Part shown: positions 5,159 to 29,783 of the stretch, one piece after another
How positions within the stretch are numbered: the first letter of the stretch is position 1
Layout of the letters: every line of letters begins with the position of its first letter
NCBI GenBank assembly: GCA_050951325.1
Contig: JBMNIW010000012.1
Location: 576,001 to 640,000, forward strand
DNA length: 64,000 bases
Origin: Clostridia bacterium
Lineage (GTDB): Bacteria; Bacillota; Clostridia; UBA1212; DUPL01
Direction of reading: 5' to 3'
Notes under the pieces: generated by a model
Seen by the model: only the letters and a program-made list of their open reading frames with translations
Databases searched by the model: none
What the model was told of the DNA's origin: nothing
Program-made: the position numbers and the translations under genes

Positions 5159-5161
5159 AAC

Positions 5162-5860: not shown

Positions 5861-5861
5861 A

Positions 5862-7442: not shown

Positions 7443-7517
7443 AGGTACATTATTAAAAAATATGGATATGTGTTGTTTGAAATGGTAACCTCCTTGCATA
7501 AGGAGGTGCCATTTTTT

Positions 7518-8687
7518 TTGGATATAAGATATCTAGTCGATATAGTTGACCAATATGTCAACTCGAAGATGGACTTGACAAGGGAATATTCAGATTATGA
7601 ATTGAAGGCGCTGATTGGCGGTTGCGTTGAAAAACTGGCAAAAAGGATACCCATGTCTCTGGAAATGAGGGAGGAGATACTTTTAAGGGTCTTCAACAGC
7701 AAGAGAAAGCTGGGAATCCTTCAACCACTTCTGGAAGACGTTACGATTAACGAAATCATGATAAACGGCACCGATGCCATATTTGTTGAGAGAAATGGAG
7801 TTATGGAGGCAGTCAAGGAAAGATTTGATTCCAAAGATAAACTGTTTAATCTGGTGCAAAACATTGTATCGAGAGTAAACAGGACAGTGAACGAGAGCAA
7901 TCCGATTGTGGACGCAAGACTTGAAGATGGATCAAGGATTAATGTGGTTCTGCATCCGGTGGCAATAAACGGACCTGTCGTTACTATTAGAAAGTTTTCA
8001 GACAAGCCCTTTACCATGGAAAAACTTGTTGATATCGGAAGTATCACTCTAGAAGAGGCTGAGTTTTTGATAAAGGCGGTAAGAAGTCGCATGAACATAT
8101 TTGTGTCAGGAGGCACATCAACAGGGAAAACAACATTTTTGAATGTGATTTCAACTTATGTAGACAAGGATGAGAGGATTGTTACTATTGAGGATTCTGC
8201 GGAACTTATGCTTGCGCATGAAAATATTGTGAGACTTGAGACAAGAGATAAAAACAGTGAGGGCAAGGGAGGGATAAGTATGAGGCAGCTAATTAAAGCG
8301 AGTTTAAGGATGCGTCCTGACAGGCTTATTGTTGGAGAGGTAAGGGATGAAAGTGCTCTTGATATGCTGGTTGCACTGAATTCAGGACATGATGGTTCCA
8401 TGTCCACGGGACATGCCAATTCGCCCTCGGATTTGCTTGTCAGGCTAGAGACCCTTGCCCTGTGGGAGGGAAATGTAAGTTCCGAGGCAATAAAGAGGCA
8501 GATGGCATCAGGTATTGATTTGATCGTTCATCTAAAGAGAAATCATTTGATGGAGAGGAAAGTTTCCGAAATTGCAGAAGTTTGCGGTTACGAGGATGGA
8601 GAGGTTGTTTTAAACACATTGTTCAGAGATGGTAAAAAGGTATCTGGTCTGAAGGTAAAAGGATACAAGGTGGAGGGTACTGAATGA
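7518..8687 (+). CDS. cpaF: Tad pilus assembly ATPase (CpaF/TadA family)
   Basis: PIVDARLEDGSRIN, SGGTSTGKTT, TIEDSAEL, LRMRPDRLIVGEVR, SGHDGSMSTGHAN; AGGAGGT RBS at 7501 favours TTG at 7518. Confidence 0.92.
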   Translation: MDIRYLVDIVDQYVNSKMDLTREYSDYELKALIGGCVEKLAKRIPMSLEMREEILLRVFNSKRKLGILQPLLEDVTINEIMINGTDAIFVERNGVMEAVKERFDSKDKLFNLVQNIVSRVNRTVNESNPIVDARLEDGSRINVVLHPVAINGPVVTIRKFSDKPFTMEKLVDIGSITLEEAEFLIKAVRSRMNIFVSGGTSTGKTTFLNVISTYVDKDERIVTIEDSAELMLAHENIVRLETRDKNSEGKGGISMRQLIKASLRMRPDRLIVGEVRDESALDMLVALNSGHDGSMSTGHANSPSDLLVRLETLALWEGNVSSEAIKRQMASGIDLIVHLKRNHLMERKVSEIAEVCGYEDGEVVLNTLFRDGKKVSGLKVKGYKVEGTE

Positions 8688-9439
8688 ACAAGACAAGGCT
8701 TGTAGATTACAAAAAGTACGTATTTTCTTTTAAGGACTGGTGTGTTTTTGCGTTTGTGTTGACCGCCATTTCCGTTATGTTTGGCCTTGTTTTGTTTGAA
8801 AGTTTAAAGATTGGCATTGTCTTTTCCATTATTTCCTCTCCTTTTGTTTTTGCAAGATTGAAAAAATACTTTATGAGAAAAAGGCTTGAAGAATTGGAAA
8901 GACAGTTTTGTGATGCGTTGCAGCTTATGTCTGCTTCTCTTTCCGCAGGCTTGAGTTTTACAAGCTGCGTAAGTGAAATTGCGAGTGGCGATTTGTCTGT
9001 TGACGGCAACCTAAGGCTTGTGCAAAAGGAGTTCGCAAATATGCAAAGACTCATTGCTCTTAACATATCGCCTGAAGAAGCTGTGGAGGCTTTTGCAAAG
9101 AGGACCGGCAGCAGGGATATACAAAACTTTTCAAACGCACTTTATGAAAGTCTGCAGGCTGGAGGCAATCTTGTGCAACTTGTCCGTAATTCAGCCAGTG
9201 CATTAAGGGTTAAGTATGACTCGGAAGATGAGATAAGGAGCCTTTTGAATCTTCCCCGATTCAATCACAGGATAATGATGGTCATGCCGTTTGTTTTAAT
9301 ACTTATGGTAAAGGCTATAGCGCCAGGATATGTGGAACCTTTATACACGGAAGGAGCAAGGTGGATTTTGTTTCTTGTAGCATTTCTAATTATTTTGTCT
9401 TGGTATATAGGAGAGAGAATATCAGATATCAAGTTCTGA
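8684..9439 (+). CDS. tadB: TadB-like pilus inner-membrane platform protein (T2SS-F domain)
   Basis: QFCDALQLMSASLSAG, GGNL motif, follows cpaF. Confidence 0.82.
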   Translation: MNKTRLVDYKKYVFSFKDWCVFAFVLTAISVMFGLVLFESLKIGIVFSIISSPFVFARLKKYFMRKRLEELERQFCDALQLMSASLSAGLSFTSCVSEIASGDLSVDGNLRLVQKEFANMQRLIALNISPEEAVEAFAKRTGSRDIQNFSNALYESLQAGGNLVQLVRNSASALRVKYDSEDEIRSLLNLPRFNHRIMMVMPFVLILMVKAIAPGYVEPLYTEGARWILFLVAFLIILSWYIGERISDIKF

Positions 9440-9450
9440 GGATGATTGTA

Positions 9451-10176
9451 ATGGGTGTTGTGGAGAGTATAAAAAAGTATTATGAAGGGGTTTGTGAAAA
9501 GTATGTAAGTTTATATGGGAAAAAAAGAGGCAGCCACGAGTTCAGGAAGGCTGTCAATAAAGCAGTTGTTGGTTATGTTGCTTCTTTTATACTTTTTCCA
9601 TTGACTTATGTTTATGGAAAATCTCTTTTTTTGAGCGTAGTTGTGTTTCTTGTTTTAATCATCTCTTTCATACTCTTGCCCAACTCGCTTATTGAAAGCA
9701 AAATGAAGGATTTGAGAAGATCTTTCAGTTTAAATATGCCGGATTTTCTTGAAAGGGTGGCCATTCTTCTCGACAGCGGCCAGAACCTTTGGGCATCCAT
9801 TGAGAAGGCGGCCATGGTTAATGACGATGAGTTTAGTCTGGAAGGTGAGATATCCAGGACAATGAAGGAGATAAATGAATGCAGAGGTTCTGAAAAGGAT
9901 CCTTGCGATGCGTTTTCTGACATGGCAAAACGCCTTGAATCATCGCATGTCAGCTCTTTTGTTTCATTAATTGTTCAGAATTCAAGAAAGGGGCAAGCAG
10001 AACTGGTTGAAATTATTCGAATGCAGGCTGCAATATACAGAAATGACAGAAAGAATGTTGCCAGGAAACTGGGAGAGGAGGCGACCACGCTGATGTTGAT
10101 ACCGACTACCATTGTTTTTATTGGCATTCTAATTATGCTTCTTTCACCTGCATTTTTAGTAATATATTCGATTTAG
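9451..10176 (+). CDS. tadC: TadC-like pilus inner-membrane platform protein
   Basis: MPDFLERVAILLDSG, QNSRKG, ARKLGEEATTLMLIP; exact start uncertain (9442 or 9451). Confidence 0.82.
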   Translation: MGVVESIKKYYEGVCEKYVSLYGKKRGSHEFRKAVNKAVVGYVASFILFPLTYVYGKSLFLSVVVFLVLIISFILLPNSLIESKMKDLRRSFSLNMPDFLERVAILLDSGQNLWASIEKAAMVNDDEFSLEGEISRTMKEINECRGSEKDPCDAFSDMAKRLESSHVSSFVSLIVQNSRKGQAELVEIIRMQAAIYRNDRKNVARKLGEEATTLMLIPTTIVFIGILIMLLSPAFLVIYSI

Positions 10177-15465: not shown

Positions 15466-17781
15466 ATGTTAAAACTTGTAAATGTTACAAAAAGTTATGT
15501 TACCGGCGATTTCAAGCAGGTTGCTTTAAATAATGTGAGTCTTGCATTCAGGGAAAATGAGTTTGTTGCAATTCTGGGTCCTTCAGGAGGCGGAAAGACG
15601 ACGCTATTAAACATCATAGGCGGCCTGGACAGATATGACAGTGGCGAGATGTATATAAACGGCAGACCCACATCCGACTTCAAGGGTGTGGAGTGGGACG
15701 CTTATAGGAACAACAGCATCGGCTTTGTTTTCCAGAATTACAACCTTATTTCCCATATATCTATCCTTGAAAATGTAGAGATGGGAATGACTCTTTCTGG
15801 AATGTCTGCCAGCGAACGAAGGGAAAGGGCCCTTCGATTGCTTGACAGGGTAGGTCTTAAAGACCATGTCAAAAAGAAACCCAACCAGCTGTCAGGCGGA
15901 CAGATGCAGAGAGTTGCGATAGCAAGAGCGCTCGCAAATGATCCTGATATTATTCTGGCGGATGAGCCAACTGGAGCTTTGGATAGCGAAACAGGAGTAC
16001 AAATACTTGACCTTATAAAAGAGATTGCGAAAAACAAACTTGTTATAATGGTTACACACAATCCCGAACTGGCAAACAAGTATGCCACCAGAATTGTCAA
16101 TTTGGTGGACGGACGGATTGTAAGCGACTCCAACCCGTATGAGGAGGAAGAACACAAGCAGTCAGGATACAAACTCAAAATGACTGCCATGAACTTTTTT
16201 ACTGCTTTGAAACTATCCTTTAACAACATAAAGACAAAGAAATTTAGAACAATACTTACCTCTTTCGCAGCAAGCATTGGAATCATAGGGATTGCACTCA
16301 TTCTCGCTCTTTCGAACGGGTTTCAGATAGAAATAGACAAGTTTGAGGAAAACACCATGTCTGGATTCCCCATAATCATAGGACAGCAGGCGACAACTGT
16401 TGATATTGCCGATATGGGTAAAAAGTTTGGAGAGGAGAACAGGAAGTACAAGGAGTTTACAGACAAAAAGGAAGTAATTCCTTTTGACAGGAGCGAAAGT
16501 GAATTAATTCATATGAACAATATTACAGAGGAATATATAGAGTATTTAAAGAGCATTGATCCGAATCTGCTTTTGGGAACCACATATACACGCATGACAT
16601 CTTTGAACTTATTGAAACTTGACAGAGACAATGTGGCAAAGATTGTATCGATGCAAGACCTGGATATGAGTGTGCTTCCAAAAAAGTTTGGTGAAGAAGG
16701 TTTTGTTGAAAAGAACTATGACATACTTTATGGAAAAATGCCAGAGAACAAAAACGAGTTATTGCTGGTTGTGGACAAATTCAATAGACTGGACAAAAGA
16801 GTGCTGGAAACGCTAGGTTTTTCAACTTATGAAAGTATAGCTTTTGAGGACATAATCGGTACCGAGTTAAGAGCCATTCCTAATAATGACTATTACGTGG
16901 AACGGGATGGATTCTTTACACTGGTTGGCAACCCTGCGGACATGACTGAAATATATAATAGGGAAACGGCAATACCTTTAAAAATTGTAGGAATCCTAAG
17001 GATAAAGAAAGACAAGATGCTGGATGTAATCCGTACAGGCGTGGCATATTCTGAAGAACTGATGGAATATATTCTGGAGGATTCGGAAAACAGCGACATT
17101 GCAAAAGCCCAAAGGGAGGCTGATTACAATGTGCTTACAGGCCAACCTTTTGATTTGACAACGGAAAAGGGAAAGGAAGACAAGGAAAATGTTCTCCGGG
17201 TAATTGGAGCAAACTCTGTTCCTTTAATGATAACAATCTTTCCTAGAGATTTTGATTCAAAGGATGACGTATTGGCGTTTTTGGATGCGTACAATGAAGG
17301 CAAAGACAGCAAGGACAGGATAATATATACAGACATGGCCGAGCAGATAACAAAGCTTACGAAAAAGATAATAGATTCAATATCCATTGTCCTTATAGCT
17401 TTTGCTTCAATTTCTTTGTTTGTTTCGTCTATAATGATTGGAATAATTACGTACATTTCCGTACTGGAAAGAACAAAAGAGATTGGAATTCTGAGGTCAT
17501 TAGGAGCAAGAAAATCGGATATTACCTTGGTATTTAATGCAGAAACCTTTATTATAGGGGTGTTTTCAGGATTAATTGGAATAGCCATAGCGTCTTTGCT
17601 GGTCATACCTACAAACATGATAATTGCAAATTATTCAAATCTTGAAAACGTAGCAAAGCTTTCGCCTTTGCATGCAATTATTCTGATTCTTGTAAGCTTG
17701 TTCTTTACAATTGTTGGAGGATTCATACCAAGCCTGATAGCTGCGAATAAGGACCCTGTGGAAGCACTGAGAACCGAATAA
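15466..17781 (+). CDS. MacB-like fused ABC ATPase/FtsX-permease
   Basis: GPSGGGKTT, LSGGQMQRVAIARAL, ADEPTGALD; C-terminal ERTKEIGILRSLGA and DPVEALRTE. Confidence 0.92.
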   Translation: MLKLVNVTKSYVTGDFKQVALNNVSLAFRENEFVAILGPSGGGKTTLLNIIGGLDRYDSGEMYINGRPTSDFKGVEWDAYRNNSIGFVFQNYNLISHISILENVEMGMTLSGMSASERRERALRLLDRVGLKDHVKKKPNQLSGGQMQRVAIARALANDPDIILADEPTGALDSETGVQILDLIKEIAKNKLVIMVTHNPELANKYATRIVNLVDGRIVSDSNPYEEEEHKQSGYKLKMTAMNFFTALKLSFNNIKTKKFRTILTSFAASIGIIGIALILALSNGFQIEIDKFEENTMSGFPIIIGQQATTVDIADMGKKFGEENRKYKEFTDKKEVIPFDRSESELIHMNNITEEYIEYLKSIDPNLLLGTTYTRMTSLNLLKLDRDNVAKIVSMQDLDMSVLPKKFGEEGFVEKNYDILYGKMPENKNELLLVVDKFNRLDKRVLETLGFSTYESIAFEDIIGTELRAIPNNDYYVERDGFFTLVGNPADMTEIYNRETAIPLKIVGILRIKKDKMLDVIRTGVAYSEELMEYILEDSENSDIAKAQREADYNVLTGQPFDLTTEKGKEDKENVLRVIGANSVPLMITIFPRDFDSKDDVLAFLDAYNEGKDSKDRIIYTDMAEQITKLTKKIIDSISIVLIAFASISLFVSSIMIGIITYISVLERTKEIGILRSLGARKSDITLVFNAETFIIGVFSGLIGIAIASLLVIPTNMIIANYSNLENVAKLSPLHAIILILVSLFFTIVGGFIPSLIAANKDPVEALRTE

Positions 17782-17788
17782 ATAATAA

Positions 17789-17823
17789 AAGAATCGGCAC
17801 AAACTCTAATGCCGATTCTTTTC
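17789..17823. terminator. Bidirectional intrinsic terminator
   Basis: AAGAATCGGCA...TGCCGATTCTT with flanking A and T runs between convergent genes. Confidence 0.75.
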
Positions 17824-17905
17824 TCCATATTCAATTTTTTGTTGCGTCCTTGGCAACACTAGTATTATACTCAAAAAAAGACAAATTATTCATTAATTGA
17901 GAAAT

Positions 17906-18088
17906 TTATCTGTCTACCAGTGCCCTGCTCTTATAGCTTGCACACATGCTTTCATCAATATCTTCAGTTGCGCAGTTCATTTTAGGCGTAACCTTTATAG
18001 CTGACAAAGTACAGCTGTTTTCAAGCGTATCGTTAAAAGAGCAGCTTGCCACATCACAAGAAATAGACTGACATTTTTTATGGCTCAT
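17906..18088 (-). CDS. DUF1540-like small Cys-rich protein
   Basis: ISCDVASCSFN...CTLSAIKV...SMCASY; AAAGGTGG RBS. Confidence 0.75.
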   Translation of the reverse strand: MSHKKCQSISCDVASCSFNDTLENSCTLSAIKVTPKMNCATEDIDESMCASYKSRALVDR

Positions 18089-18188
18089 TTTAGTTCCACC
18101 TTTCAAGTCAACCTTTGTACGGAATTACCGTACAGTTGTATTTTGTCCTGAAAAACGTTATTCTTTCATGTAATTTTAGCCTGATATA

Positions 18189-18217
18189 TTGACAATGGTA
18201 ATCGGTTAGTATAAAAT
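18189..18217 (+). promoter_or_regulatory. Sigma-A promoter of the riboswitch-led operon
   Basis: TTGACA-17 bp-TAAAAT. Confidence 0.75.
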
Positions 18218-18263
18218 CTAAATGCTTTGATATTTTTTTAACAATATTAAAGTGAAAAAAATA

Positions 18264-18366
18264 CTGGTTCCGAGTGTTTTCTACCTAAAGCCAAAATGGC
18301 CATGGGGAAACACCGATAGGGTTGAAAGAGAAATTTTTCAGCCTTCCGGAGTTGAAAAGGAACAGG
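18264..18366 (+). ncRNA. Moco RNA motif riboswitch, P3-less tungsten-cofactor (Tuco/Wco) type
   Basis: TCCGAG; P2 GTGTTTTC/GGAAACAC with CCTAAAG..CATGG tetraloop-receptor-like motif; AGGG; P4 GGTTGAAAGA-GAAA-TTTTTCAGCC; CTTCCG...GAAAAGGA; only 4 nt where P3 would be; downstream genes are pterin-related. Confidence 0.88.
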
Positions 18367-18402
18367 AAAGAAATCACCCTTATGGGTGGTAATTTCTTTA
18401 TG

Positions 18403-18439
18403 TTCTCTTGTTCCGGACGGAATCAAGAGAATTTTTTTT
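18403..18439 (+). terminator. Riboswitch expression-platform terminator
   Basis: TTCTCTTGTTCC-ggac-GGAATCAAGAGAA followed by T8, about 30 nt before the first start codon. Confidence 0.85.
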
Positions 18440-18468
18440 GATAAAGAAATTAAAAGGAGAAGAATAAA

Positions 18469-19665
18469 ATGAAAAAGCATCTATTAATCTTGGCGATATT
18501 TGTATTAGTTTTAGCACTGGCTGCTGGGTGTGCAAATAATAACGGTCAGAACACCACACCAACACCTACTGATGCACCCCAGTCCTATGAGGATGACGAC
18601 TATATTCTTGAAATTGTAGGAATCGGGGATGAAACCATCAAAGTGACAAAAGGGCAAATCAGGGAACTTGCCGCAGGTGGCAAACTTGTTGAGTACGGCG
18701 AAGACCAGCCTGCATACGCATCCGACAAGACTGACGATGATGGCAACAAAATTCCACACACATTGAAAGGAGTATATTTCGACGATATACTTGAAGTTTA
18801 TGCAGATGACGCAAAAACTTCCGATTTTACAAGCATGTCTATTTATGCCGAAGACGGTTACGAGACAATTCTTTCAGCTGATGTCTTCAACGTAGAACAA
18901 GGCGGAGTTAAAATGATTGTTGCCTTTGAGTATGACGGCATTGAGCTTAATCCAAATGAGAAGAGCGGAGCTTTGAGAGTTGTTTTTCCTGACAAGCCGG
19001 CAAATACCTGGGCAAAACAGGTTTCCAAGATAGTTTTGGCAAGTGAGGAAGATGAGGAAACAGTTCCGGAAACTGAAAGCGTATACTTCTCAGAATCAAC
19101 CGGAGACAAATATGACGGTAGTTATGAGGTAGACGGCACTACATATTATGGAACAAGCTTCAAAAAAATATTTGACGACGGAATATTGAAGAGCGGTGAT
19201 AAGGCCCAGATGTTCGTATATTCGTGGGATGGAACCGAGTATACAAGCTTGAAGACAAAAGAGTATTACGAGGATGCGTTCTTGGTTTATGCATCAAAGG
19301 ATGCTGACAGTGACGAGTTTGCTCAAGAGAAGGACGCACCGGTATTCAATGGGGCAAACATTTTAAAAGGCATGAAGGTAAAACACACCATGTATGTGAC
19401 TGTTGAAAACACTTCTTTTGCAGTACTTGACAAAGTTTTTGAAAAGCTTGATTCCAAAGGCAAAGGCAGTATTCTTGTTAGTGAGCTGCTTGATGAAATA
19501 AATATGAAAGAAGCGTCAATCTATACCATAACCGGGGTTGACGGCACTGAAAAACAGGCAAAGAAAGAAGATTTAAAGGATATAAGGATTGAGTCAACAG
19601 ATGAAGGATACGTTGTTTCAGTTGATGGCAGTGAGTTTGTAATATTGAGCATACAGGCGAAATGA
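18469..19665 (+). CDS. Lipoprotein with repeated molybdopterin-binding (Oxidored_molyb/SUOX-fold) domains lacking the Mo-ligand Cys
   Basis: Lipobox LAAGC, PT linker; LKGVYFDDIL..YAEDGY..IVAFEYDG..GALRVVFP..TWAKQVSKI; degenerate repeats follow. Confidence 0.75.
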   Translation: MKKHLLILAIFVLVLALAAGCANNNGQNTTPTPTDAPQSYEDDDYILEIVGIGDETIKVTKGQIRELAAGGKLVEYGEDQPAYASDKTDDDGNKIPHTLKGVYFDDILEVYADDAKTSDFTSMSIYAEDGYETILSADVFNVEQGGVKMIVAFEYDGIELNPNEKSGALRVVFPDKPANTWAKQVSKIVLASEEDEETVPETESVYFSESTGDKYDGSYEVDGTTYYGTSFKKIFDDGILKSGDKAQMFVYSWDGTEYTSLKTKEYYEDAFLVYASKDADSDEFAQEKDAPVFNGANILKGMKVKHTMYVTVENTSFAVLDKVFEKLDSKGKGSILVSELLDEINMKEASIYTITGVDGTEKQAKKEDLKDIRIESTDEGYVVSVDGSEFVILSIQAK

Positions 19666-20228
19666 GGAAGGTTATTAAATCATATTCTGTTTTGGATCTG
19701 GTATTAATAGCGATGCTAGCAGCCCTTGCTACAGGCTTCAAGACTGTTGCAAACACACTGGTCAAGTTAATAACAGGTCCTTTGGGAATCCCAGGAGGGG
19801 CTTTGGCAGGCGGATTTTATATGATGTGGCTTGCCATTGGGCATTCGGTAGTTCGTAAATTTGGGGTATCTTTCATGATATCCCTTGTCCAGGCTCTCGT
19901 ACTATTTACAACCAGCGCACCAGGCAGCCACGGCATCTGGACTTTCATAACGTATTTGATTCCCGGACTTTGCGTTGACATTGTGTTTCTCTTTGCAAGA
20001 AAAAACAATGCCAATGTTCTGCATTTCATGATTGCCGTGATGATGGCAAATGTACTGGGCACACTAGGGAGCTTTTTGCTATGGTTCAGGTTATCCTGGT
20101 TGTGGCTTGCGTTTAGCCTGACTGCAGCGGCTTTATCCGGAGCAATTGGAGGGCTTGTGGCATATTCTGTTGATAAGGGAATTAGGAGAATTGGTTTAAT
20201 TTTCAAAGAGGATGGGGCAGATCAATGA
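19662..20228 (+). CDS. ECF transporter substrate-specific S component
   Basis: 188 aa, about 6 TM, N-terminal DLVLIAMLAAL (AxxxA), PG..VD motif; same operon as EcfA/A'/T. Confidence 0.82.
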   Translation: MRKVIKSYSVLDLVLIAMLAALATGFKTVANTLVKLITGPLGIPGGALAGGFYMMWLAIGHSVVRKFGVSFMISLVQALVLFTTSAPGSHGIWTFITYLIPGLCVDIVFLFARKNNANVLHFMIAVMMANVLGTLGSFLLWFRLSWLWLAFSLTAAALSGAIGGLVAYSVDKGIRRIGLIFKEDGADQ

Positions 20229-21670
20229 AAAGAGCACTATTGATACTGACAGTTGTCTTGTTGGTGATTTTTGCAGGATGCACGAACAAGGAAAGTGAAC
20301 CAGGCAAATACATAACCGTAAACGGGGATATAGAAGGCGTCTCTGTAGAAGTGAACTTGAGTGATATTTCAAAAGAAGAGATAGCAATAAAGGATACACT
20401 TTACAAAGGGGTGCGTTTGTCAAAGGTTCTTGAGAAGGTTTCACTACTGGCACCTGTTGATAAGAGCTATGTAATGATAACAGCCATAGACGGAGTGTCT
20501 GCACTAATTGATGCGGAGACTGCCAACTTGTGTCATGTTGTCGAAGTAGAAGGAGTTTTGAACATAAAGGCTCCGGAACATCCGAGGGTTGTTGGTATCA
20601 AGCATGTTCTTGAGATTACAATAGTTGCCCATGAGGATGTGGAAATTTCTGATGAGAATTCTCTAAAAATTGTGGATCAAGAGGGTGACAGACGTATAAG
20701 TTTTGGAAACTGCAAGCTCCTTATGTTTGAGAAATCAGGTGAAAGTAGACAGAACGGAAATCTCGCTGTGAAGTATGTAAAGAAAGCGCCATTAAAGGCG
20801 GAAGAATTCATCGGCGATGATTTCGTACTTTACTTCGACAACTATGACATGCTGAAAGTGGATAGGGATTATGCAGGTGTTTTTGTTTGGGAAAATGGCA
20901 GAATATATTATGAAACGGACGAGAGGTACGATAGTCCTGTTACAGGTATTGTGACAGGCGTCGACACCGTTATATTCGATGCCTTTGACATGATGAAGAT
21001 ATTATTGGATAAGAATGAAATGGTTATGTTTATCCTGCCTGACGGGTTGTCTTACGAGCAGGTGGAATATTACAAGGATAACCTTACAATATTATCAGGC
21101 AATTACAAAAAAGCAGCCAGCGTGAACCCAGCCATATCAAATGTGGCTTTGGCAGCAATAATTACCGGACAATCACCTTTTGCAACAGGCATAACAAAGA
21201 GGGAAGTAAAAGCTCCTAACGTAAAGGACATTTTTGAATACGTTGTCAGTAAAGGGAAAACGGCATCATATATTGAAGGGAATTCAGTATTGGTTGTAAC
21301 CTCGGAAAAGCCAAAACTGAATGTAGCCAACTCGGAAGGATATACTGATAAAGGCGTATTTGAAACAGCCATGTATGAACTGGGCAAAAATCCTGATTTT
21401 TTATTCATACATTTCCACGGCATTGATGATGTAAATCACGAGTACTCTCCTTTGTCAGAGGAAGCCAAGCAGAAGATATATGAAATAGAAGGATATATTA
21501 AAGAGCTGGTTAAAAACTTTTATGGGCATGTGATAATTGTGCCTGACCATGGAGCAGTGACTATAGAAGACACGGATGGGACAAAAAGAGGAAAACACAG
21601 CTTGTTCAAGTATGGAGACATGTATGTGCCCTTCTACTATTTTGAAAGGGGTAGTTTGATTGAAGAATAG
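20225..21670 (+). CDS. Lipoprotein: degenerate SUOX-fold domain plus alkaline phosphatase/NPP-superfamily domain
   Basis: Lipobox IFAGC; YKGVRLSKVL..ITAIDG; ILPDGL, PAISNVALAAIITG, HFHGIDDVNH, VPDHG, GKH. Confidence 0.8.
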   Translation: MKRALLILTVVLLVIFAGCTNKESEPGKYITVNGDIEGVSVEVNLSDISKEEIAIKDTLYKGVRLSKVLEKVSLLAPVDKSYVMITAIDGVSALIDAETANLCHVVEVEGVLNIKAPEHPRVVGIKHVLEITIVAHEDVEISDENSLKIVDQEGDRRISFGNCKLLMFEKSGESRQNGNLAVKYVKKAPLKAEEFIGDDFVLYFDNYDMLKVDRDYAGVFVWENGRIYYETDERYDSPVTGIVTGVDTVIFDAFDMMKILLDKNEMVMFILPDGLSYEQVEYYKDNLTILSGNYKKAASVNPAISNVALAAIITGQSPFATGITKREVKAPNVKDIFEYVVSKGKTASYIEGNSVLVVTSEKPKLNVANSEGYTDKGVFETAMYELGKNPDFLFIHFHGIDDVNHEYSPLSEEAKQKIYEIEGYIKELVKNFYGHVIIVPDHGAVTIEDTDGTKRGKHSLFKYGDMYVPFYYFERGSLIEE

Positions 21671-22208
21671 GAATGTGCTTATTGCACTGGTTATATTGGT
21701 TGTACTTTCCATTCTGTTTGGTGTTATGCTGTTTGTCTTTATGAATGAAAACAAGAAAAACGTGGAGCAGTATGAAAAAAGGGAAATTGCAATTACCATC
21801 AATGGAGAGAGGGAAGTATATACCTTTGAAGAATTGATGGAGATAAGCCAGCCGGTTGATTTTAAGGCAATATACAAGCCTAGCAACAAGGAACCCATAG
21901 AAAAGACCTATACCGGAATAGAATTGAGGGACCTGCTTGAGAAGTTGGGGGCAGACTTGGAGAACATGAAACAGATTACATTTACTGCAAAAGACGGTTT
22001 TCAGAAAGTGTACCGGGCAGAGGATGTAAGGAAGGAAACCAATGTATTTATAACGCATTTGGTGAATGGAAAGCCTTTCAACGAAGGCATTGATGTGATG
22101 GCATATGAAAAGGAACAGGAAGATGGCGGACCTTTTGTGGTAATAAAGGCGGAAGACAAAGTAAGCCAGAACAGAGTAAAAATGCTTGTAGAGATTGTGG
22201 TGGAATGA
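21660..22208 (+). CDS. Membrane-anchored molybdopterin-binding (SUOX-fold) domain protein, no Cys
   Basis: N-terminal TM; YTFEEL..YTGIELRDLL..TAKDGF..VNGKPF..GGPFVVI..VKMLVEI. Confidence 0.78.
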   Translation: MKNRNVLIALVILVVLSILFGVMLFVFMNENKKNVEQYEKREIAITINGEREVYTFEELMEISQPVDFKAIYKPSNKEPIEKTYTGIELRDLLEKLGADLENMKQITFTAKDGFQKVYRAEDVRKETNVFITHLVNGKPFNEGIDVMAYEKEQEDGGPFVVIKAEDKVSQNRVKMLVEIVVE

Positions 22209-22870
22209 AACTTACAGTAGAAAATCTAACAGTAATGTTTAAAAACAGAATTATACTTGATAATGTATCATTACAAGTTGAAGCAGGAGAAATTGTTGCA
22301 GTAGTCGGACCAAATGGCAGTGGAAAATCCACACTTTGTACTGCAATTGCAGGTGTGTCTCAAAATTATGGACTGAGTACTGTTGGCAGAATAAGGATAG
22401 GTGACAAAGAGTTGTCCCAACTCAGTATTCATGAAAGATGCGCCTTGCTTGGTGTCATATTCCAGAATTCTGATAACTTTCTTTTTTCTCAATATGTTGA
22501 GGACGAGCTTCGGTTTGCTCCTGAAAATCTATGTGTTCCCAGGGCGGAAATTGAAACAAGAATAAAAGAAGCTTTGGATTTTACCGGTATTAGCTATTTA
22601 AGACATAGAAAAATTCAGGAGCTTTCGGGAGGGGAGAAGAAGCTGGTTTCAATTGCGTCTGTTTTAACCATGATGAGCAAATTCCTAATAGCGGATGAAA
22701 TAACTTCCGGAGTAGACGAGGACAGGAAGGTTCAGATACGGGAGATTCTAAGAAAACTAGCCAAAGACAATATTGGAATACTAATGATATCCCACAACAG
22801 AAACGATATTGAAATTGCTGACAGAATATATGTATTAAAGGATGGCAAATTGCATGATAGAACTGATTGA
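22205..22870 (+). CDS. ECF transporter ATPase (EcfA)
   Basis: GPNGSGKST, IFQN, VEDELRFAPENL, LSGGEKK, ADE, SH. Confidence 0.88.
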   Translation: MKLTVENLTVMFKNRIILDNVSLQVEAGEIVAVVGPNGSGKSTLCTAIAGVSQNYGLSTVGRIRIGDKELSQLSIHERCALLGVIFQNSDNFLFSQYVEDELRFAPENLCVPRAEIETRIKEALDFTGISYLRHRKIQELSGGEKKLVSIASVLTMMSKFLIADEITSGVDEDRKVQIREILRKLAKDNIGILMISHNRNDIEIADRIYVLKDGKLHDRTD

Positions 22871-23507
22871 CGTATCCTTTGCGTATAACAAGAACAACAT
22901 GGTTCTGAGAAATATTACATATACATTCAAAGAAGGTGTACTGTATGTTTTGGGCGGAAAAAACGGCTCAGGCAAAACCACAATGGGAAAACTAATGTGC
23001 GGCCTTGTAAAGACAAAACAAGGTATTGTCAAGGTAAGCGGAACCAATATATATAAAAAGACTGTTGGCGAGATATCAGAACATGTAGGGTATTTGTACC
23101 AGAATCCTGATTTGCAATTATTTGCACCGACCGTTTATGAAGAACTTGTTTTTCCTTATGAACTGAATGGAACACTGACTTATGAAATAAAAGAGAGGGC
23201 GGAAAAGCTGCTCCAGGTCTTCAAGCTTGAAGACAAAAAGGACACCTTTCCTCTGCTCATGTCCTTGGGAGAAAGACAGAGGCTTGCTCTTGCCACAATA
23301 ATGATGAGGGACACCAAATTCATTATATTTGATGAACCGACATCCTCCATTGATGCGGAATGCAAAGCAATGATACATGAATTTATATTAAGCTTTGTTG
23401 AAAATGGAGGAGGAGCTTTTATAATATCACATGATGAGGATTTCAATTTGAACGGAGTAAACGGCATGAATCTGAGGATGGAAGGTGGAATGCTGTATGA
23501 AAAGTAG
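22854..23507 (+). CDS. ECF transporter ATPase (EcfA')
   Basis: GKNGSGKTT, YQNPDLQLFAPTVYEEL, SLGERQR, FDEPT, SHD. Confidence 0.88.
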   Translation: MIELIDVSFAYNKNNMVLRNITYTFKEGVLYVLGGKNGSGKTTMGKLMCGLVKTKQGIVKVSGTNIYKKTVGEISEHVGYLYQNPDLQLFAPTVYEELVFPYELNGTLTYEIKERAEKLLQVFKLEDKKDTFPLLMSLGERQRLALATIMMRDTKFIIFDEPTSSIDAECKAMIHEFILSFVENGGGAFIISHDEDFNLNGVNGMNLRMEGGMLYEK

Positions 23508-24234
23508 ACTGGATCCAAGAATCACCATGTTGTTTATTGTACTGACATCCACACTGTCCGTCCTTGCCTCAAATGTATATTGGCTGCTGCTGGTCTTTTT
23601 ATTGACCCTGTTGTTAAACATTGTATTCAGATTAAATCCATTGAAGACTCTGTACAGAATGAGAAGGCTTGTGTCAATGATAATCTTCATAGCCTTTTTC
23701 CAAAGCCTCACAACTTCGGGAGGGAGACCAATTATTACTTTGCTCGGTGCAAATATTGTAACTTCCAAAGGACTTGTGGACAGCTTGTCTTTTGTACTCA
23801 GGATGGGCAACATAATGCTGGCCGTCATGCTCGGTACAAAACATGACAGTCGTGATATGATAGACGGACTTGCAAAACTCAAGATTCCTTATGAGCTGGC
23901 CTTTATGACAGGAATAGCACTCAAGTTTATTCCACTGTTTGGTCAGGAGTTTGCCGATAGAATAAAAGCCGTAAGTTTGAGAGGAATAAATATTAAGAAA
24001 CTCAAGCTGTCAAAAAAGATAAAAATCTATTCACACATTTTGGTGCCTGCAATTTCCGGCAGCATTATCAAGAGCAGGGATATTGCCTCATCCATGGAGA
24101 CAAGGGGATTCAGGGCGTATCCTGATAGAACCAATTTAAGAGTATTGAAACTAAAATTAGCAGACTATATCGCAATGATAATTGCATCATCAATATTTTT
24201 ACTAATCATATACTTTATGTTTGCAAGGAGGTAG
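23497..24234 (+). CDS. ECF transporter transmembrane component EcfT
   Basis: LDPR start, IPYE..IALKFIP, SLRG and METRGF coupling motifs. Confidence 0.9.
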   Translation: MKSRLDPRITMLFIVLTSTLSVLASNVYWLLLVFLLTLLLNIVFRLNPLKTLYRMRRLVSMIIFIAFFQSLTTSGGRPIITLLGANIVTSKGLVDSLSFVLRMGNIMLAVMLGTKHDSRDMIDGLAKLKIPYELAFMTGIALKFIPLFGQEFADRIKAVSLRGINIKKLKLSKKIKIYSHILVPAISGSIIKSRDIASSMETRGFRAYPDRTNLRVLKLKLADYIAMIIASSIFLLIIYFMFARR

Positions 24235-24236
24235 TT

Positions 24237-24977
24237 ATGAAAGTATTAACGGTAACGGGGCTTAGCGGAAGCGGAAAGACCACCGTAATAGAGAATTTGA
24301 TAAAAGAACTAAAAAGAAGAGGTTATTCCATAGGAAGTGTAAAGGAGATTCATTATGAGGCGTTTGCCATTGATACTCCTGGAAAGAACACCTACAGACA
24401 CAGACAAGCAGGAGCAGAAATTGTAACAGCAAGAGCTCACAATGAAACAGACATATTGTATCCCGGACACCTGCCGATTTACGAAGTGCTCTCCCACTAT
24501 AATCAGGACTATGTTTTGCTTGAAGGAGTAAGGGACTGTGTGGCTCCGGAGATTGCTGTTTGCAAGGAAGATGCTGAGCCTGAAATAACTCCTCTTACGT
24601 TTGCAGTAAGTGGAAGGTTTGCAAACACCGGTGTTACGGAGTACAAGGGTCTTCCTGTAATATCAGCAGTTGATGACATAGGAAGACTGGCAGACCTTGT
24701 CGAGGAAAAGGTTCCGAGTTTAATGCATGATATAGAGTATGAATGCTGTGGTGAATGCGGTACGGATTGTAGAGGATTTCTTGCAAGGCTTCTGAAGGGA
24801 GAGGTTGTCAGTTCCGATTGCGAACTGAGTCAAAGAGAAGTCAAGTTGATTATCGACGGTCAGGATATTGTAATGGTGCCTTTTGTTCAAAGGATACTGA
24901 AAAACGCAGTGGTGGGAGTTGTATCGGAACTTAATGGGTACAAGGAAGGAAAGAAGATAGTAATAGAGATAGAATGA
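24237..24977 (+). CDS. mobB: MobB-like P-loop protein with C-terminal FeS domain
   Basis: VTGLSGSGKTTVIENLIKEL..VKEIH..IDTPGKNTYRHRQAGA; CGECGTDC..C. Confidence 0.82.
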   Translation: MKVLTVTGLSGSGKTTVIENLIKELKRRGYSIGSVKEIHYEAFAIDTPGKNTYRHRQAGAEIVTARAHNETDILYPGHLPIYEVLSHYNQDYVLLEGVRDCVAPEIAVCKEDAEPEITPLTFAVSGRFANTGVTEYKGLPVISAVDDIGRLADLVEEKVPSLMHDIEYECCGECGTDCRGFLARLLKGEVVSSDCELSQREVKLIIDGQDIVMVPFVQRILKNAVVGVVSELNGYKEGKKIVIEIE

Positions 24978-25627
24978 TGGGCGAAATTATTAAGCGGTTC
25001 GAGAGCAAGAAAAACAGTGTTTTTCTAGTAAGTGTGGAAGGAATCATGCAAGTTGTAAAGGTGCATGAATCAGAGGAAAAAGCCTACTTTGAATCAGAGG
25101 TTTTAAAAAGGCTTTACTTGTATGCTAACGTACCAAAGGTTATTAAGGTAGAATCAAACAGGATCTACATGGAATACATAGAGGGAAAACTTGCTGTTGA
25201 CTACTTTCTCGAATGCGATACTGAAGAAGTAAAAGAACTGGCAAGACAGATGCTATCCTTTTGCCGGGTTTACTCAGACCAATTTGATAACTTCCGTTTG
25301 TCGGATACAAACTTCCGGAATTTTATCGTGGTTGAAATGGACGAAGAAATTGAATTGTACGGTGTTGATTTTGAGGAAAGGGAAGAAGGCACACTGATAA
25401 AAAGTGCAGCTGAACTGTGTGCTTTCTCGTTTTTGTATGATGTTGATGCTTATAAGAAGAAAACCTTTTACAATACAATTGCATCAAATTGCTCCGAGCA
25501 GGAAGTTGACTTTTTAAACGACTATATTTTTAATAGCTTGAATAAGCTTATTAAAAGACGCAGATTGAATTTAAATGTTAAAAGTGTCTTTGAAGAATTG
25601 GTAATTGGCAACGGGCATATGGTATAA
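24974..25627 (+). CDS. Small protein-kinase-fold phosphotransferase (Bud32/RIO/Kdo-kinase-like)
   Basis: VVK, helix-C Glu (FESE), VPKV, YMEYIEG, DTNFRN catalytic loop, VDFE. Confidence 0.72.
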   Translation: MMGEIIKRFESKKNSVFLVSVEGIMQVVKVHESEEKAYFESEVLKRLYLYANVPKVIKVESNRIYMEYIEGKLAVDYFLECDTEEVKELARQMLSFCRVYSDQFDNFRLSDTNFRNFIVVEMDEEIELYGVDFEEREEGTLIKSAAELCAFSFLYDVDAYKKKTFYNTIASNCSEQEVDFLNDYIFNSLNKLIKRRRLNLNVKSVFEELVIGNGHMV

Positions 25628-26705: not shown

Positions 26706-28484
26706 TTAGACAAACTCCTTTATTGACTCATCTTCTTCAGCCAAAATTTCCTCGCAACGCCTTGCATATTCTTCTGCAATCTCGTTTGCCATATACTGAT
26801 CAAGTTTGCCTGTTGTTGTTGGTGTTTCAAAAAATCTCTTGGGAAGCTTTACATCCTGTATTGCAAAGCCCAAGGATTTCTTAATCTCTAGCTTTGTTCT
26901 CAGGATACGCTTTGCAATATCTGTCAGTGTTTCGTCAGTATAGTCAAGCCCAACGCATTTAAGGACCATCCTGATATTTTCCCTGCTGTATACTTTACGT
27001 GCAAACAGGCATATGATTAAAGAATTCAGCAGGCAGCGCTCGATTTCCTCGCTAATAAGGTAGTCTACGAGTTTTTCCTTGTCAAGCTCCTTGTCCCTGT
27101 TGGACTGGTCATATGAATAGCCTGCATTACAGAGGTGAGAATGTCTTGCGCCTACCAATGCGCCTACAAGAGAGCCGTAGCCCGTGTGGTAACCAGGCAT
27201 TTCGTTACCAGCAATCTGCATGCCAAAATCATAACCGCCATACTTCTTGGCTACGTGTTTTACTCCCTTGCCCATATCGGTATAGAGCTGATTGACACCT
27301 TGTGCAATGTAGTCGACAGCTTTAGCAAGGTTTACATAATCGCCCATCTTCAAAGGCAGAATGGTTTGCTCTTCTGTAATGATGCCCCTTTCAAGAGCTT
27401 CACAAGCCCATCCCAGAACAACACCGCAGGACATGGCGTCAAGCCCGTTTCTTTCAACAGCATCGATAACGTATAAAACTCCATCCGTATTATCAACACC
27501 AAGGAATGAGCCAAGTGCATAAATTAGTTCGTAGTCGTATCCGACCGAAATCGCTTCGTACTCATAGCCGTGGTCAAATTCACGTCTGAACTGTCCTATG
27601 TGTATGCATCCAACAGGACATCCTGTGCATGCCATTTTTCTAATCAGGTTGTTCTTCGCAAAGGCCTCTCCTGAAATATTTTCAGCATGCTCAAAAGTTC
27701 CAGAGGTAAGGTTTCGGGTCGGAAGACCTCCCATGGCGCTCAATGGCTCTACGTTTATGGGAGTGCCGGCATCATGATATTTTGCCATTACTTCTGTTTC
27801 GGTTACCTGTTTGTACAGTTTGGAGTAGGTCTTGAAATAGTCCTTGAAATTGGGTATTGGCATGGGAAGATCGCCTGTAACCTGCATTGCTTTCATAAGC
27901 TTGCTGCCAAAAACGGCACCCAGGCCCAGTCTTCCAAAATGTCTGTATGTGTCAACGCAAACACTTGCATAGGAGCACAGATTTTCACCTGCAGGACCTA
28001 TGCGGATGATGGAACGCTTTCCGCTTCCATGCTCCCTGTTTCTGATATATGAGCCTACCTTGTCGGAGTCCATTCCCCAAAAAGCGCGTGCGTCCTTTAT
28101 TTCCACTCCTGTTTGTGTAACTGTAACATAACAAGGTTTTTGAGATTTACCTGTAATTACTATGGCGTCATAGCCTGCATGCAGCATTGTGAAGGCGAGT
28201 CTGCCACCTGCATAGGACTCACCCAGTTCTCCTGTTAGAGGAGAAACAAACATGGCTACAGTCTTGGTTATGACTGGAAATACAGATGAAGCTGCGCCAA
28301 TTGCAAAAATTATAGGTTGATCCTCATGAAGGGGAGGCAAATCAGGATTCATGTTTTCCTGTAGGAGTTTTGAGGCAACTCCCACACCTCCCAAATAGGC
28401 TCTAAGATCCTTTCTCTTGTCAACCCTTATGCGGCCTGTTGAGAGATTTATATTCAAAACTCTTATGTAATCTTTATAAAACAT
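26706..28484 (-). CDS. Tungsten-containing aldehyde:ferredoxin oxidoreductase family (WOR/AOR) large subunit
   Basis: YLGGVG, SPLTG..ESYAGG, GYDAIVITGK, IGPAGEN, GRLGLGAVFGSK, LPTRN, CTGCPVGC; GGAGG RBS before ATG 28484. Confidence 0.93.
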   Translation of the reverse strand: MFYKDYIRVLNINLSTGRIRVDKRKDLRAYLGGVGVASKLLQENMNPDLPPLHEDQPIIFAIGAASSVFPVITKTVAMFVSPLTGELGESYAGGRLAFTMLHAGYDAIVITGKSQKPCYVTVTQTGVEIKDARAFWGMDSDKVGSYIRNREHGSGKRSIIRIGPAGENLCSYASVCVDTYRHFGRLGLGAVFGSKLMKAMQVTGDLPMPIPNFKDYFKTYSKLYKQVTETEVMAKYHDAGTPINVEPLSAMGGLPTRNLTSGTFEHAENISGEAFAKNNLIRKMACTGCPVGCIHIGQFRREFDHGYEYEAISVGYDYELIYALGSFLGVDNTDGVLYVIDAVERNGLDAMSCGVVLGWACEALERGIITEEQTILPLKMGDYVNLAKAVDYIAQGVNQLYTDMGKGVKHVAKKYGGYDFGMQIAGNEMPGYHTGYGSLVGALVGARHSHLCNAGYSYDQSNRDKELDKEKLVDYLISEEIERCLLNSLIICLFARKVYSRENIRMVLKCVGLDYTDETLTDIAKRILRTKLEIKKSLGFAIQDVKLPKRFFETPTTTGKLDQYMANEIAEEYARRCEEILAEEDESIKEFV

Positions 28485-28893
28485 CGTCGACTTCCTCCAT
28501 TGTAAGACATTGATGTGGACAGAATCTTGTGCAGGATCCACAGTGTTTGCAGATTATTGGCAAATTCTCTTCCTCGTCAAAAAACACCGCGCCAACTATG
28601 CAAGCATCAACACACTTTTTGCATCCGGTACACATATCCTTGTTAAGCAGGACACCGCCTCCTTTACGTTCAACCAACGCACCTGTAGGACAAGCTTCAA
28701 GACATGCTCTGTCATCCTTGCATGCGTGGCATACAGTTGCATAGAATCCGTGTTTCAAGCCTCCGTTTGTCTTTATTTTTATTGCACTTTTTGAAATGGA
28801 GAAGTTGTGTTTGTTGACAGCTGCACATACGGTCATGCATGAAAAGCAGCCAATGCACTTCCTCATTCCGTCTGTTCTAAGCGCTCTTGCCAC
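28474..28893 (-). CDS. 4Fe-4S dicluster ferredoxin-like small subunit of the WOR
   Basis: CIGCFSCMTVC, CHAC..CLEACP, CTGCKKCVDAC, CKHCGSCTRFCP; overlaps the large-subunit start. Confidence 0.92.
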   Translation of the reverse strand: MARALRTDGMRKCIGCFSCMTVCAAVNKHNFSISKSAIKIKTNGGLKHGFYATVCHACKDDRACLEACPTGALVERKGGGVLLNKDMCTGCKKCVDACIVGAVFFDEEENLPIICKHCGSCTRFCPHQCLTMEEVDDVL

Positions 28894-28983: not shown

Positions 28984-29054
28984 TTTCTACATGTCCAATT
29001 TTATTTGTATTATTGAGGGAAAATTAGTATACTAATAATATAGGGGTGAACAGA

Positions 29055-29783
29055 ATGAGTACACACAAATCAAGCAAAAGATATGAAAGGCAGATGAATT
29101 TACAGAGTCTTCCCGACAACTTTCAGGACTTATTGCGTAATAGCAAGGTGTTGATTCTGGGAGCAGGAGGCTTGGGCTGTGCAGCCTCCATTTATGTCGC
29201 TGCAGCTGGTGTTGGAAAAATAACGGTGGTGGACAGGGACACTATAAACGAGCCCGACTTGAACAGACAGATACTCTATACACCGGAGGACATAGGAAAA
29301 AAGAAAGCCAAAACATGTGTGGAGAGGCTACATAAATTCAACCCGGATATAGAATGTGTGGGATTGGCAAAGGAGATAAATGACAAACTACTAAAGGACC
29401 TTGTTCCGAAGCATGATATTGTCATGGATTTATGCGACAACTATTCCACGAGAATAAAAATAGCTGAAGCATGTCAAAAATATGGTAGGCAATGTGTGGT
29501 TGCAGCTGTAAATGGACTTGAAGGATTTGTGATGGTTACAGACAAAGGTTCTGCATGTTTTGGTTGCCTTTATCCTGACGAAGTAAAGCTTTCAGTCAGC
29601 CCGCCGAGGGTTTTGGGAGCAGCAGCAGGAAATGTGGGAGTTCTAGCTGCCATGCGATGCATACTGACTTTATGTAATGTTGGAAAGGTCGGTGTCATGT
29701 ATTGTCTTGATTTTATAAACATGATTATTGACGAGATAGAGATAACGAAAAGCACCAATTGTCATGTTTGCTGCAAGGCTTGA
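29055..29783 (+). CDS. MoeB/ThiF family adenylyltransferase
   Basis: RYERQ, GAGGLG, DRD..DLNRQ, CDN, CFGC and CHVC zinc motifs. Confidence 0.9.
   Translation: MSTHKSSKRYERQMNLQSLPDNFQDLLRNSKVLILGAGGLGCAASIYVAAAGVGKITVVDRDTINEPDLNRQILYTPEDIGKKKAKTCVERLHKFNPDIECVGLAKEINDKLLKDLVPKHDIVMDLCDNYSTRIKIAEACQKYGRQCVVAAVNGLEGFVMVTDKGSACFGCLYPDEVKLSVSPPRVLGAAAGNVGVLAAMRCILTLCNVGKVGVMYCLDFINMIIDEIEITKSTNCHVCCKA

Follow-up and report, generated by a model that had tools for sequence, protein, structure and literature searches.

The mechanism by which energy-coupling factor (ECF) transporters import their substrates is established for this transporter family. One of the described systems, YkoEDC, is related to thiamine and hydroxymethylpyrimidine (HMP), and its substrate-specific (S) component, YkoE (PDB 5EDL), shares with the gene studied here the PF09819 family, the six-helix S fold, and a dedicated A/T module (group I). 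This gene lies at positions 19662-20228 (+) of a 64,000-nucleotide stretch of DNA from a Clostridia bacterium (GenBank assembly GCA_050951325.1, contig JBMNIW010000012.1, positions 576,001 to 640,000); the whole stretch is called the window below and the bacterium is called the host. In contrast to YkoE, the S component of the window is found behind a riboswitch for the molybdenum cofactor (Moco) or tungsten cofactor (Tuco) instead of a thiamine pyrophosphate (TPP) riboswitch, has its own invariant loop motifs, and is accompanied by pterin-binding partners that are absent from YkoE. We consider it likely that this protein is the S component of an ECF salvage importer for the tungsten or molybdenum pyranopterin cofactor, and the form imported in the host is most likely Tuco or a close metal-loaded derivative. 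This reading is based on the riboswitch linkage and the riboswitch class, synteny, pterin-binding partners, a predicted complex, gene losses in the host, related genomes, a sample of the class, and an independent replicate in another genome (G216).

The riboswitch of the window is of the same RNA family, and of the same P3-less subclass tied to the tungsten cofactor, as in the regulons described by Regulski et al. (2008). In the passages of that study on this subject, switches without the P3 stem track the use of the tungsten cofactor, those with P3 are assigned to Moco, and the genes under their control are those for biosynthesis, for the transport of molybdate or tungstate, and for enzymes (Regulski et al. 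2008; PMC2408646). In Syntrophomonas wolfei, P3-less switches precede genes called 'putative sulphite oxidase', which that study read as an exception. Since two of our loci (L072 and L076) are from Syntrophomonas, these switches probably belong to the operon type described here.

PruR of Proteobacteria (7KOM, 7KOS, and 7RKB) resembles the partner proteins of the window in its small, cysteine-free, extracytoplasmic fold, which is like that of the sulfite oxidase (SUOX) family. According to the part of the source that deals with this protein, PruR is a small periplasmic SUOX-fold protein without the Mo-ligating cysteine that controls a GGDEF-EAL signalling protein (PMC11194511). Unlike PruR, the domain of the window comes from Bacillota and has a membrane or lipid anchor; it also occurs repeatedly or as a fusion with a pyrophosphatase, and it is linked to a transporter. 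The Co and Ni ECF importers CbiMNQO and NikMNQO likewise combine a dedicated A/T module with a small membrane-anchored accessory subunit beside S, but the S component of the window is from another family and its accessory has a pterin-binding domain. The ECF classes drawn up by Rodionov et al. in 2009 reportedly include no class for Moco. Finished Moco is gained from other organisms by Caenorhabditis elegans through dietary uptake, although this is an animal and its transporter is not known; textbooks and reviews state that Moco has to be synthesized de novo, and in the relevant part of a 2021 review, C. elegans is the only known exception (PMC9026282). No bacterial importer of Moco or Tuco was found in full-text searches of the literature, and Fig. 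S4 and the gene lists in Table 1 of Regulski et al. (2008), as well as the additional files of Sun et al. (2013), may already list these genes. The part of Sun et al. (2013) on riboswitch-controlled coenzyme uptake systems lists no Moco transporter, a passage of a genome note names a three-gene 'molybdopterin import cluster' without evidence (PMC4511579), and a survey of flavinylation (PMC8238504) does not mention molybdenum, tungsten, or ECF. Cofactor uptake of this kind would be new for bacteria, while the architecture of the S component, that of a group I ECF vitamin importer, is known.

The S component and its riboswitch

The gene starts with ATG and encodes 188 residues, and its product was assigned through Pfam, alignment, structural modeling, and Foldseek. 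A match to PF09819 (ABC_cobalt, the YkoE-type S-component family) scored 58.2 bits (E = 1.2e-15), above the cut-off of 25.2. This was the sole match in the Pfam search, with no domain of the CbiM/NikM family, and an NCBIfam search gave no matches. The AlphaFold model, which was built on 25 homologues, had six long helices and a mean pLDDT of 85.6. The best PDB matches of the model in Foldseek were all ECF S components, with YkoE (5EDL) at a TM-score of 0.72, followed by ThiT, RibU, FolT, and PanT. When the family profile was compared to PDB sequences, it reached YkoE 5EDL alone (E = 0.065, 19% identity). An initial annotation of the window, made from the DNA letters, had described an S-component-like protein with distinctive loops, and both parts of this description were borne out. 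In the translation, the loops are residues 39-56, GPLGIPGGALAGGFYMMW, and residues 86-91, APGSHG, and both contain residues that are invariant in the 25-sequence alignment (I43, P44, G46, G50, G51, Y53, M54, G88, H90, and G91). In the model, these residues map to loop 1 and the start of helix 2, and to loop 3. Since the motifs are invariant across the alignment, they are family signatures and not chance. Helix 1 also has an AxxxA-type face of small residues: 90% or more of the 25 homologues have Ala at positions 17, 21, and 25, and the window copy has A17, A21, and G25. Presumably, S docks on EcfT through this face. A YkoE-like specificity for thiamine or HMP was rejected for this protein, and it is not an orthologue of YkoE, as the sequence relation is remote and there is no TPP riboswitch in the window or in the 29 related loci that were scanned with all of Rfam.

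The aptamer is of the P3-less type and is found at 18256-18378 (+), where it matched RF01055 at 66.7 bits compared to a gathering score of 36. The model positions of the P3 stem are deleted in this alignment, and a direct CCG-AUAGGG junction is common to all eight aligned P3-less copies (those of seven loci and the window). An intrinsic terminator begins 27 nt past the aptamer and consists of a hairpin (18405-18429) followed by eight T residues (18432-18439). This region (18405-18439, +) was assigned as an OFF-switch expression platform by its sequence and fold; the predicted fold forms the hairpin with a minimum free energy of -31.6 kcal/mol (z = -4.5), and inspection by eye gave an alternative pairing between the terminator region and the 3' strand of P1. 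Upstream of the aptamer, a consensus scan gave a promoter-like site at 18189-18217 (+; TTGACA, 17 nt, TAAAAT; 11/12), which is a pattern match only. The promoter-like site, aptamer, and terminator together are the anatomy of a transcriptional OFF switch. This is the only copy of RF01055 in the whole host genome, and the Rfam scan of the window gave no TPP riboswitch.

The homologues of S form 139 protein clusters with relatives in 442 species genomes, and the loci of the best 80 of these 442 were surveyed. A Moco riboswitch was found upstream on the same strand in all seven loci that were scanned first with Rfam. A covariance model was made from these seven copies and the window copy, and it was run on all 80 loci. 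It detected the riboswitch upstream on the S strand in 58 of them, at a distance of 70 to 9960 nt from S (median 2362). The initial annotation had named homologues lying mostly behind TPP, cobalamin, or S-adenosylmethionine (SAM) riboswitches as the outcome that would count against a pterin cofactor; a scan of 29 loci with the complete Rfam library gave none of these classes, the other 51 loci having been scanned by the covariance model alone. The 22 loci with no match to the covariance model all gave no riboswitch of any class in the full Rfam scan. In 19 of them, the contig was judged to end upstream: 17 have less than 1.7 kb before S, and L027 and L048 begin inside the long operon type described below. 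The other three (L040, L069, and L080) have about 10 kb upstream, and L069 and L080 also have no A/T module. In L080, which is from a metagenome-assembled genome (MAG) of Thermoleophilia, the S match falls within a 604-aa frame, the context is unrelated, and no riboswitch is present.

Two related loci had further riboswitch matches. In L063 (Anaerovirgula multivorans), a second P3-less switch at 18661-18784 (-) heads genes like tupA, tupB, and tupC of a tungstate transporter (16152-18784, -), and these genes are tail to tail with the ECF operon. In L067 (15540-17845, +), a weak match to the riboswitch model (32.5 bits) is right before a gene for aldehyde:ferredoxin oxidoreductase (AOR), in a genome with four matches to the AOR family (AFOR) and none to MoaC or MoeA.

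The operon and its pterin-binding partners

The riboswitch is followed on the plus strand by an operon of ten genes, mostly with overlapping stop and start codons, which includes LipoMo, S, PDE, smMo, EcfA, EcfA', EcfT, MobB-FeS, and a kinase. As the initial annotation had proposed, S has its own A/A'/T module. The ATPases EcfA (22205-22870, +) and EcfA' (22842-23507, +) matched PF00005 and TIGR04520 (E = 3e-52 and 3e-42, respectively), and the transmembrane coupling component EcfT, of the CbiQ family (23485-24234, +), matched PF02361 at 92.9 bits. Another EcfA-EcfA'-EcfT set is found elsewhere in the host genome (G000:C3:70850-73240, -) with 28-35% identity to the operon set, and is presumably a shared module for other S components. 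Gene order was strongly conserved across loci. Of the loci surveyed, 58 extend 6 kb or more past S. In this set, EcfA' and EcfT were found in 56 loci, smMo in 53, MobB in 52, the kinase in 37, and PDE in 46 or more. For the loci surveyed, these counts, along with those of the riboswitch, give the tabulation of homologues' switches and neighbors that had been suggested as a check.

LipoMo (18469-19665, +) is a 398-aa lipoprotein (lipobox LAAGC) with an N-terminal PruR/SUOX-like pterin-binding domain, and smMo (21660-22208, +) is a 182-aa pterin-binding protein of the same type, anchored to the membrane by an N-terminal helix (residues 4-39). Both gave weak matches to PF00174 (Oxidored_molyb) of 26.7 and 23.3 bits, respectively, and the assignment of smMo came from its model, Foldseek, and the complex prediction. 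The smMo model, with 42 homologues, had a pLDDT of 95.8. With this model, Foldseek placed PruR pterin-binding proteins first, namely 7KOM, 7KP2, 7KOS, and 7RKB (a complex with neopterin), with E of about 3e-7 and 13-18% identity, and ranked Moco domains next, from sulfite oxidase, SorA, SoxC, and YedY (E = 4e-7 to 5e-4). In a sequence search of the PDB, LipoMo had no matches and smMo had only chance-level matches (best E = 0.07). Residues 35-190 of LipoMo align to the smMo profile (hhalign 96%, E = 4e-9). PDE (20225-21670, +), a 481-aa lipoprotein (lipobox FAGC) with a type I phosphodiesterase/nucleotide pyrophosphatase domain, gave a weaker alignment over its N-terminal residues 58-111 (69.8%, E = 4e-5) and, judging from this sequence match, probably carries the same pterin-binding-like domain. 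PF01663 was matched in PDE at 42.7 bits against a cut-off of 23, over residues 383-449 only. Candidate metal-binding and nucleophile motifs (DG, S/T-N, D..H, and DHG-like) can be seen by eye in its translation.

LipoMo and smMo were also considered as molybdoenzymes of the SUOX family. This was rejected because they lack the Mo-ligating cysteine, although they have the fold of a Moco domain. smMo has no cysteine, LipoMo has only that of the lipobox and none in the mature protein, and the 42-sequence smMo alignment has no invariant cysteine. The genomic context of PruR was not recovered, as a Pfam search of the nine operon proteins gave no DcpA-type GGDEF-EAL partner.

The complex of S and smMo was predicted with an ipSAE of 0.69 (0.68, 0.71, and 0.69 in three runs), compared to 0.00 for the best of three controls. 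A score of 0.69 or more was seen for 58 of 80 solved complexes and 2 of 110 mismatched pairs; these counts hold only roughly here, since the S-smMo prediction used its own alignments. The runs agreed to at least 78%, and the partner pLDDT was at least 82. The complex is predicted to have the smMo anchor helix packed against S helices 5 and 6, with contacts between the conserved segment 111-117 of smMo and residues 39-44 of S, which are part of the loop-1 motif. This prediction supports the binding of smMo to S.

MobB is a cytoplasmic protein fused to a Cys-rich iron-sulfur (FeS) domain (24237-24977, +). It matched PF03205 at 86.4 bits and NF011064, 'MobB/FeS domain-containing protein', at E = 3e-39, under the cut-off of the latter. 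The 217-aa kinase (24974-25627, +) is a small protein-kinase-like protein of RIO/APH type with a weak RIO1 match. K29, D111, N116, and D132 are invariant in 40 homologues, of which 18 have matches to APH (a small-molecule kinase) and 18 to RIO1, and the PDB matches of the profile include Rio2 (1e-7) and Bud32 (1e-6). The gene for a tungsten-type AOR of the AFOR family (26706-28541, -; AFOR_N 205.6 bits, AFOR_C 214.4 bits) is 1.1 kb past the operon, with an SDR gene in between, and is the presumed client. A 4Fe-4S ferredoxin-like protein (28474-28893, -; Fer4 families) is encoded upstream of it. Adjacency to AOR was rejected as a general rule, as an AOR-like gene was found within just 4 of the 80 loci.

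Several variants of the operon were seen. The long operon type (L018 785-9431; L077 2398-9719; L015, L021, L025, L029, L033, L035, L037, L041, L050, L053, L056, L060, and L067) has extra genes between the riboswitch and S, which encode SLH-anchored surface proteins and a propeller (Reg_prop) protein of 1177-1915 aa. A fusion of FMN_bind and a SUOX-like domain, a membrane protein with NapH-like Fer4_5 and FMN_bind, and extra SUOX-like domains also occur in this type. These genes suggest surface capture and an extracytoplasmic redox step. The L036-type operon (2876-9958; also L043, L048, and L071) is behind the same riboswitch and carries FMN_bind, DUF364/DUF4213 'heavy-metal chelation', and FmdE genes, as well as an ABC system made up of a FecCD permease, an ATPase, and a Peripla_BP_2 binding protein. 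EcfA and EcfA' are fused in a single 476-aa open reading frame (ORF) in L038. A conserved ORF of 170-450 aa, absent from the window operon, is found between LipoMo and S in L002-L004, L008-L011, L014, and L016; its copy in L002 (9052-9972) has no Pfam match.

Cofactor genes in carrier genomes

The host genome is 3.08 Mb in 12 contigs and is 96.09% complete. Profile searches of the whole genome gave no matches to MoaC, MoaE, the MoaA C-domain, or MoeA_N, and none to PF00384 (DMSO-reductase-type Molybdopterin) or PF02738 (xanthine-dehydrogenase MoCoBD). MogA was rejected, since the sole MoCF_biosynth match was CinA, and no TupA or TupB was found by tblastn with the L063 proteins as queries. The check for ModA/WtpA gave weak SBP_bac_11 matches (37 and 27.7 bits) that are not decisive, and the check for MobA gave four weak NTP_transf_3 matches (best 50.5 bits). 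The host has exactly one AFOR gene, that of the window, and it encodes the only pterin-cofactor enzyme found in the genome. Since the host is without MoeA, MogA, and a tungstate transporter, it would need a metal-loaded cofactor. The main alternative to this conclusion is that the MobB-FeS protein and the kinase fill the metallation gap of the host with chemistry of an unknown kind.

Next, MoaC, MoeA, and AFOR were searched for in 50 of the 80 locus genomes, which were hand-picked with long contigs and isolates favored. MoaC was found in 27, MoeA in 27, and AFOR in 44. Both MoaC and MoeA were missing from 22 genomes and present in 26, and 2 were discordant. At least one AFOR was kept in 19 of the 22 genomes without MoaC and MoeA. 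The absences cluster in the closest relatives of the window (L001-L014), which argues for real loss. A sample of the class was also drawn, consisting of 301 evenly chosen genomes with a requested completeness of at least 90%. S was matched in 18 of these, 16 of them strongly, and the 16 strong carriers and 284 other genomes were scored. AFOR was present in 16/16 strong carriers compared to 23/284 others.

An independent replicate came from G216 (100% complete), which was one of the two weak S matches of the class sample and has an S homologue with 29% identity. Its locus, L083 (G216:C2:6000-22000; 3300-9647), has a riboswitch with a P3 stem at 7893-8029 (87.6 bits), and behind it are genes for the S homologue, a homologue of smMo (hhalign 96.8%), and a transferase resembling MobA. 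Adjoining genes on the opposite strand encode a 917-aa Molybdopterin-family enzyme and a 610-aa FeS flavoprotein. In the whole genome of G216, no match was found to MoaC, MoeA, AFOR, or the xanthine dehydrogenase family. The L083 copy is the sole Moco riboswitch of this genome, and the 917-aa enzyme is its only PF00384 enzyme. In the G216 S homologue, the loop-3 motif is GSMG instead of GSHG. Two S and smMo branches, therefore, sit behind Tuco- and Moco-type switches, each beside a matching client enzyme and in a genome unable to make the cofactor.

The initial annotation had proposed that S defines a substrate class, marked by the riboswitch as a pterin cofactor. This proposal gained independent support from the partners with a pterin-binding fold, the predicted contact between S and its partner at the conserved loop, the loss of biosynthesis, and the P3-containing replicate, and it is from these that we infer the substrate.

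Proposed route and competing explanations

In the route that we propose, a low level of cofactor in the cell would let transcription pass the terminator of the P3-less riboswitch, with the cofactor as the likely ligand. Lipid- or helix-anchored proteins with the cysteine-free SUOX/PruR-like domain would catch the cofactor at the cell surface, and the nucleotide-pyrophosphatase lipoprotein may trim its dinucleotide forms (molybdopterin guanine or cytosine dinucleotide, MGD or MCD) or remove phosphate. The single-pass smMo, with its helix packed on S helices 5 and 6 as predicted, would offer its pterin site to loop 1 of S, and S with its own EcfA/A'/T module would carry the cofactor inward. Inside the cell, the cofactor may be processed, or chaperoned to apo-AOR, by the MobB-FeS protein and the small kinase, with the kinase re-phosphorylating it and MobB acting as the chaperone. 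In genomes that make molybdopterin, the system would supplement synthesis; in the host and many close relatives, the importer would be the sole source of cofactor. At its fullest, this would be a transporter without precedent, dedicated to importing the pyranopterin cofactor intact and with its metal (Tuco, and Moco in the sister branch), with surface PruR-like capture from the environment or from released proteins, trimming by the pyrophosphatase, hand-over to S by a single-pass pterin-binding subunit, and whole lineages of anaerobes that have turned auxotrophic and rely on cross-feeding of the tungsten or molybdenum cofactor within their communities. We regard this full version as equally likely to be right or wrong.

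Several observations weigh against cofactor import. Free Moco and Tuco are labile, as stated in the part of the review concerned (PMC9026282), and PruR proteins bind small non-Moco pterins and are without a deep Moco cleft, according to the passages on ligand binding (PMC11194511). L040 carries a complete operon with no detectable riboswitch. The variant operons add FMN_bind, NapH-like Fer4_5, and SLH or propeller proteins, and a simple importer leaves this redox role unexplained. The 50 locus genomes are mostly MAGs with no reported completeness, and moaC and moeA are often on one contig, so their joint absence does not amount to two independent observations. In the class sample, MoaC was present in 15/16 strong S carriers. 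Auxotrophy is thus absent from most carriers, in which the transporter may feed biosynthesis, for example with tungstate. Like many vitamin importers, the system is found alongside biosynthesis in most of the high-quality genomes that carry it. Lastly, three genomes that are 100% complete (G109, G192, and G268) have pterin enzymes without MoaC, MoeA, an S match, or a Moco riboswitch. The enzymes are AFOR-like in all three, with one of the Molybdopterin family in addition in G268; these genomes may use another cofactor route or reflect search misses.

A system that takes up tungstate or molybdate, perhaps chelated, for cofactor synthesis would be similar to the Co and Ni ECF importers with accessory extracytoplasmic subunits. 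It would suit the many strong carriers that keep MoaC (15/16), the tupABC genes under the same P3-less switch type in L063, and the 'heavy-metal chelation' DUF364/DUF4213, FmdE, and FecCD-type ABC genes of L036-type operons, and the association with AFOR fits tungsten supply as well as cofactor supply. However, we find metal-ion import quite unlikely, given that the host has no MoaA, MoaC, MoaE, or MoeA, and G216 no MoaC or MoeA, with which to use the metal, and that 22/50 relatives are without both MoaC and MoeA. In addition, S belongs to the YkoE-like organic-substrate family PF09819 with no other Pfam match, the partners have a pterin-binding fold, and the pyrophosphatase, kinase, and MobA/MobB have no part in ion uptake.

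The same losses bear on whether another pterin or a metal-free precursor, such as molybdopterin, cyclic pyranopterin monophosphate (cPMP), neopterin, or monapterin, is imported instead of the finished cofactor, which we judge unlikely. cPMP is unusable in a host without MoaE, and without MoeA, MogA, or known tungstate or molybdate uptake, molybdopterin would not be metallated there by known routes, although metal-free molybdopterin would suit the carriers that keep MoeA (27/50). PruR, the nearest structural relative of the partner, does bind small non-Moco pterins, but no pathway is known from neopterin-type pterins to molybdopterin. The kinase suggests the import of a dephosphorylated species that is then re-phosphorylated, while the riboswitch class, MobA/MobB, and the client enzymes all indicate Moco or Tuco. 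It is very improbable that the SUOX-like lipoproteins are surface tungsto- or molybdoenzymes of an extracytoplasmic redox system and that the ECF-like module exports or loads their cofactor. The window copies have no metal-ligating cysteine and none is invariant in the 42 homologues, the domain is a truncated, PruR-like version, and the host is unable to make a cofactor for export. ECF systems are known solely as importers. Such a redox system would, on the other hand, account for the variant operons with FMN_bind and NapH-like Fer4_5, which are typical of electron delivery to extracytoplasmic reductases and are in some cases fused to the SUOX-like domain, and it agrees with the Sec-type signals of the lipoproteins, which could not take the cofactor out with them.

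If the cofactor is indeed imported, the tungsten or molybdenum pterin cofactor would be a shared, cross-fed 'vitamin' in anoxic communities, and the persistence of tungsten or molybdenum enzymes in genomes from which the entire biosynthetic pathway has been lost would be accounted for. It would provide a testable gene set for cofactor delivery, where the movement of Moco between cells is an open question for the therapy of Moco deficiency. A function would be assigned to the P3-less riboswitches before 'sulfite oxidase-like' genes, the PruR pterin-binding fold would be extended to Gram-positive transport, and a substrate-capture subunit would be added to vitamin-type ECF transporters. Routine annotations such as 'cobalt permease', 'thiamine/HMP permease', and 'sulfite oxidase' would also be corrected.

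Other features of the window were noted around the operon. Directly upstream of the riboswitch are genes for a DUF1540 small Cys-rich protein (17906-18106, -) and a 771-aa fused ABC ATPase-permease (15466-17781, +). A ThiF-family gene of 245 aa (29046-29783, +), which may encode a MoeB-like or a tRNA-modification enzyme, is divergent from the genes for ferredoxin and AOR and has prs and pth downstream of it. A tRNA gene is found at 50842-50914 (-).

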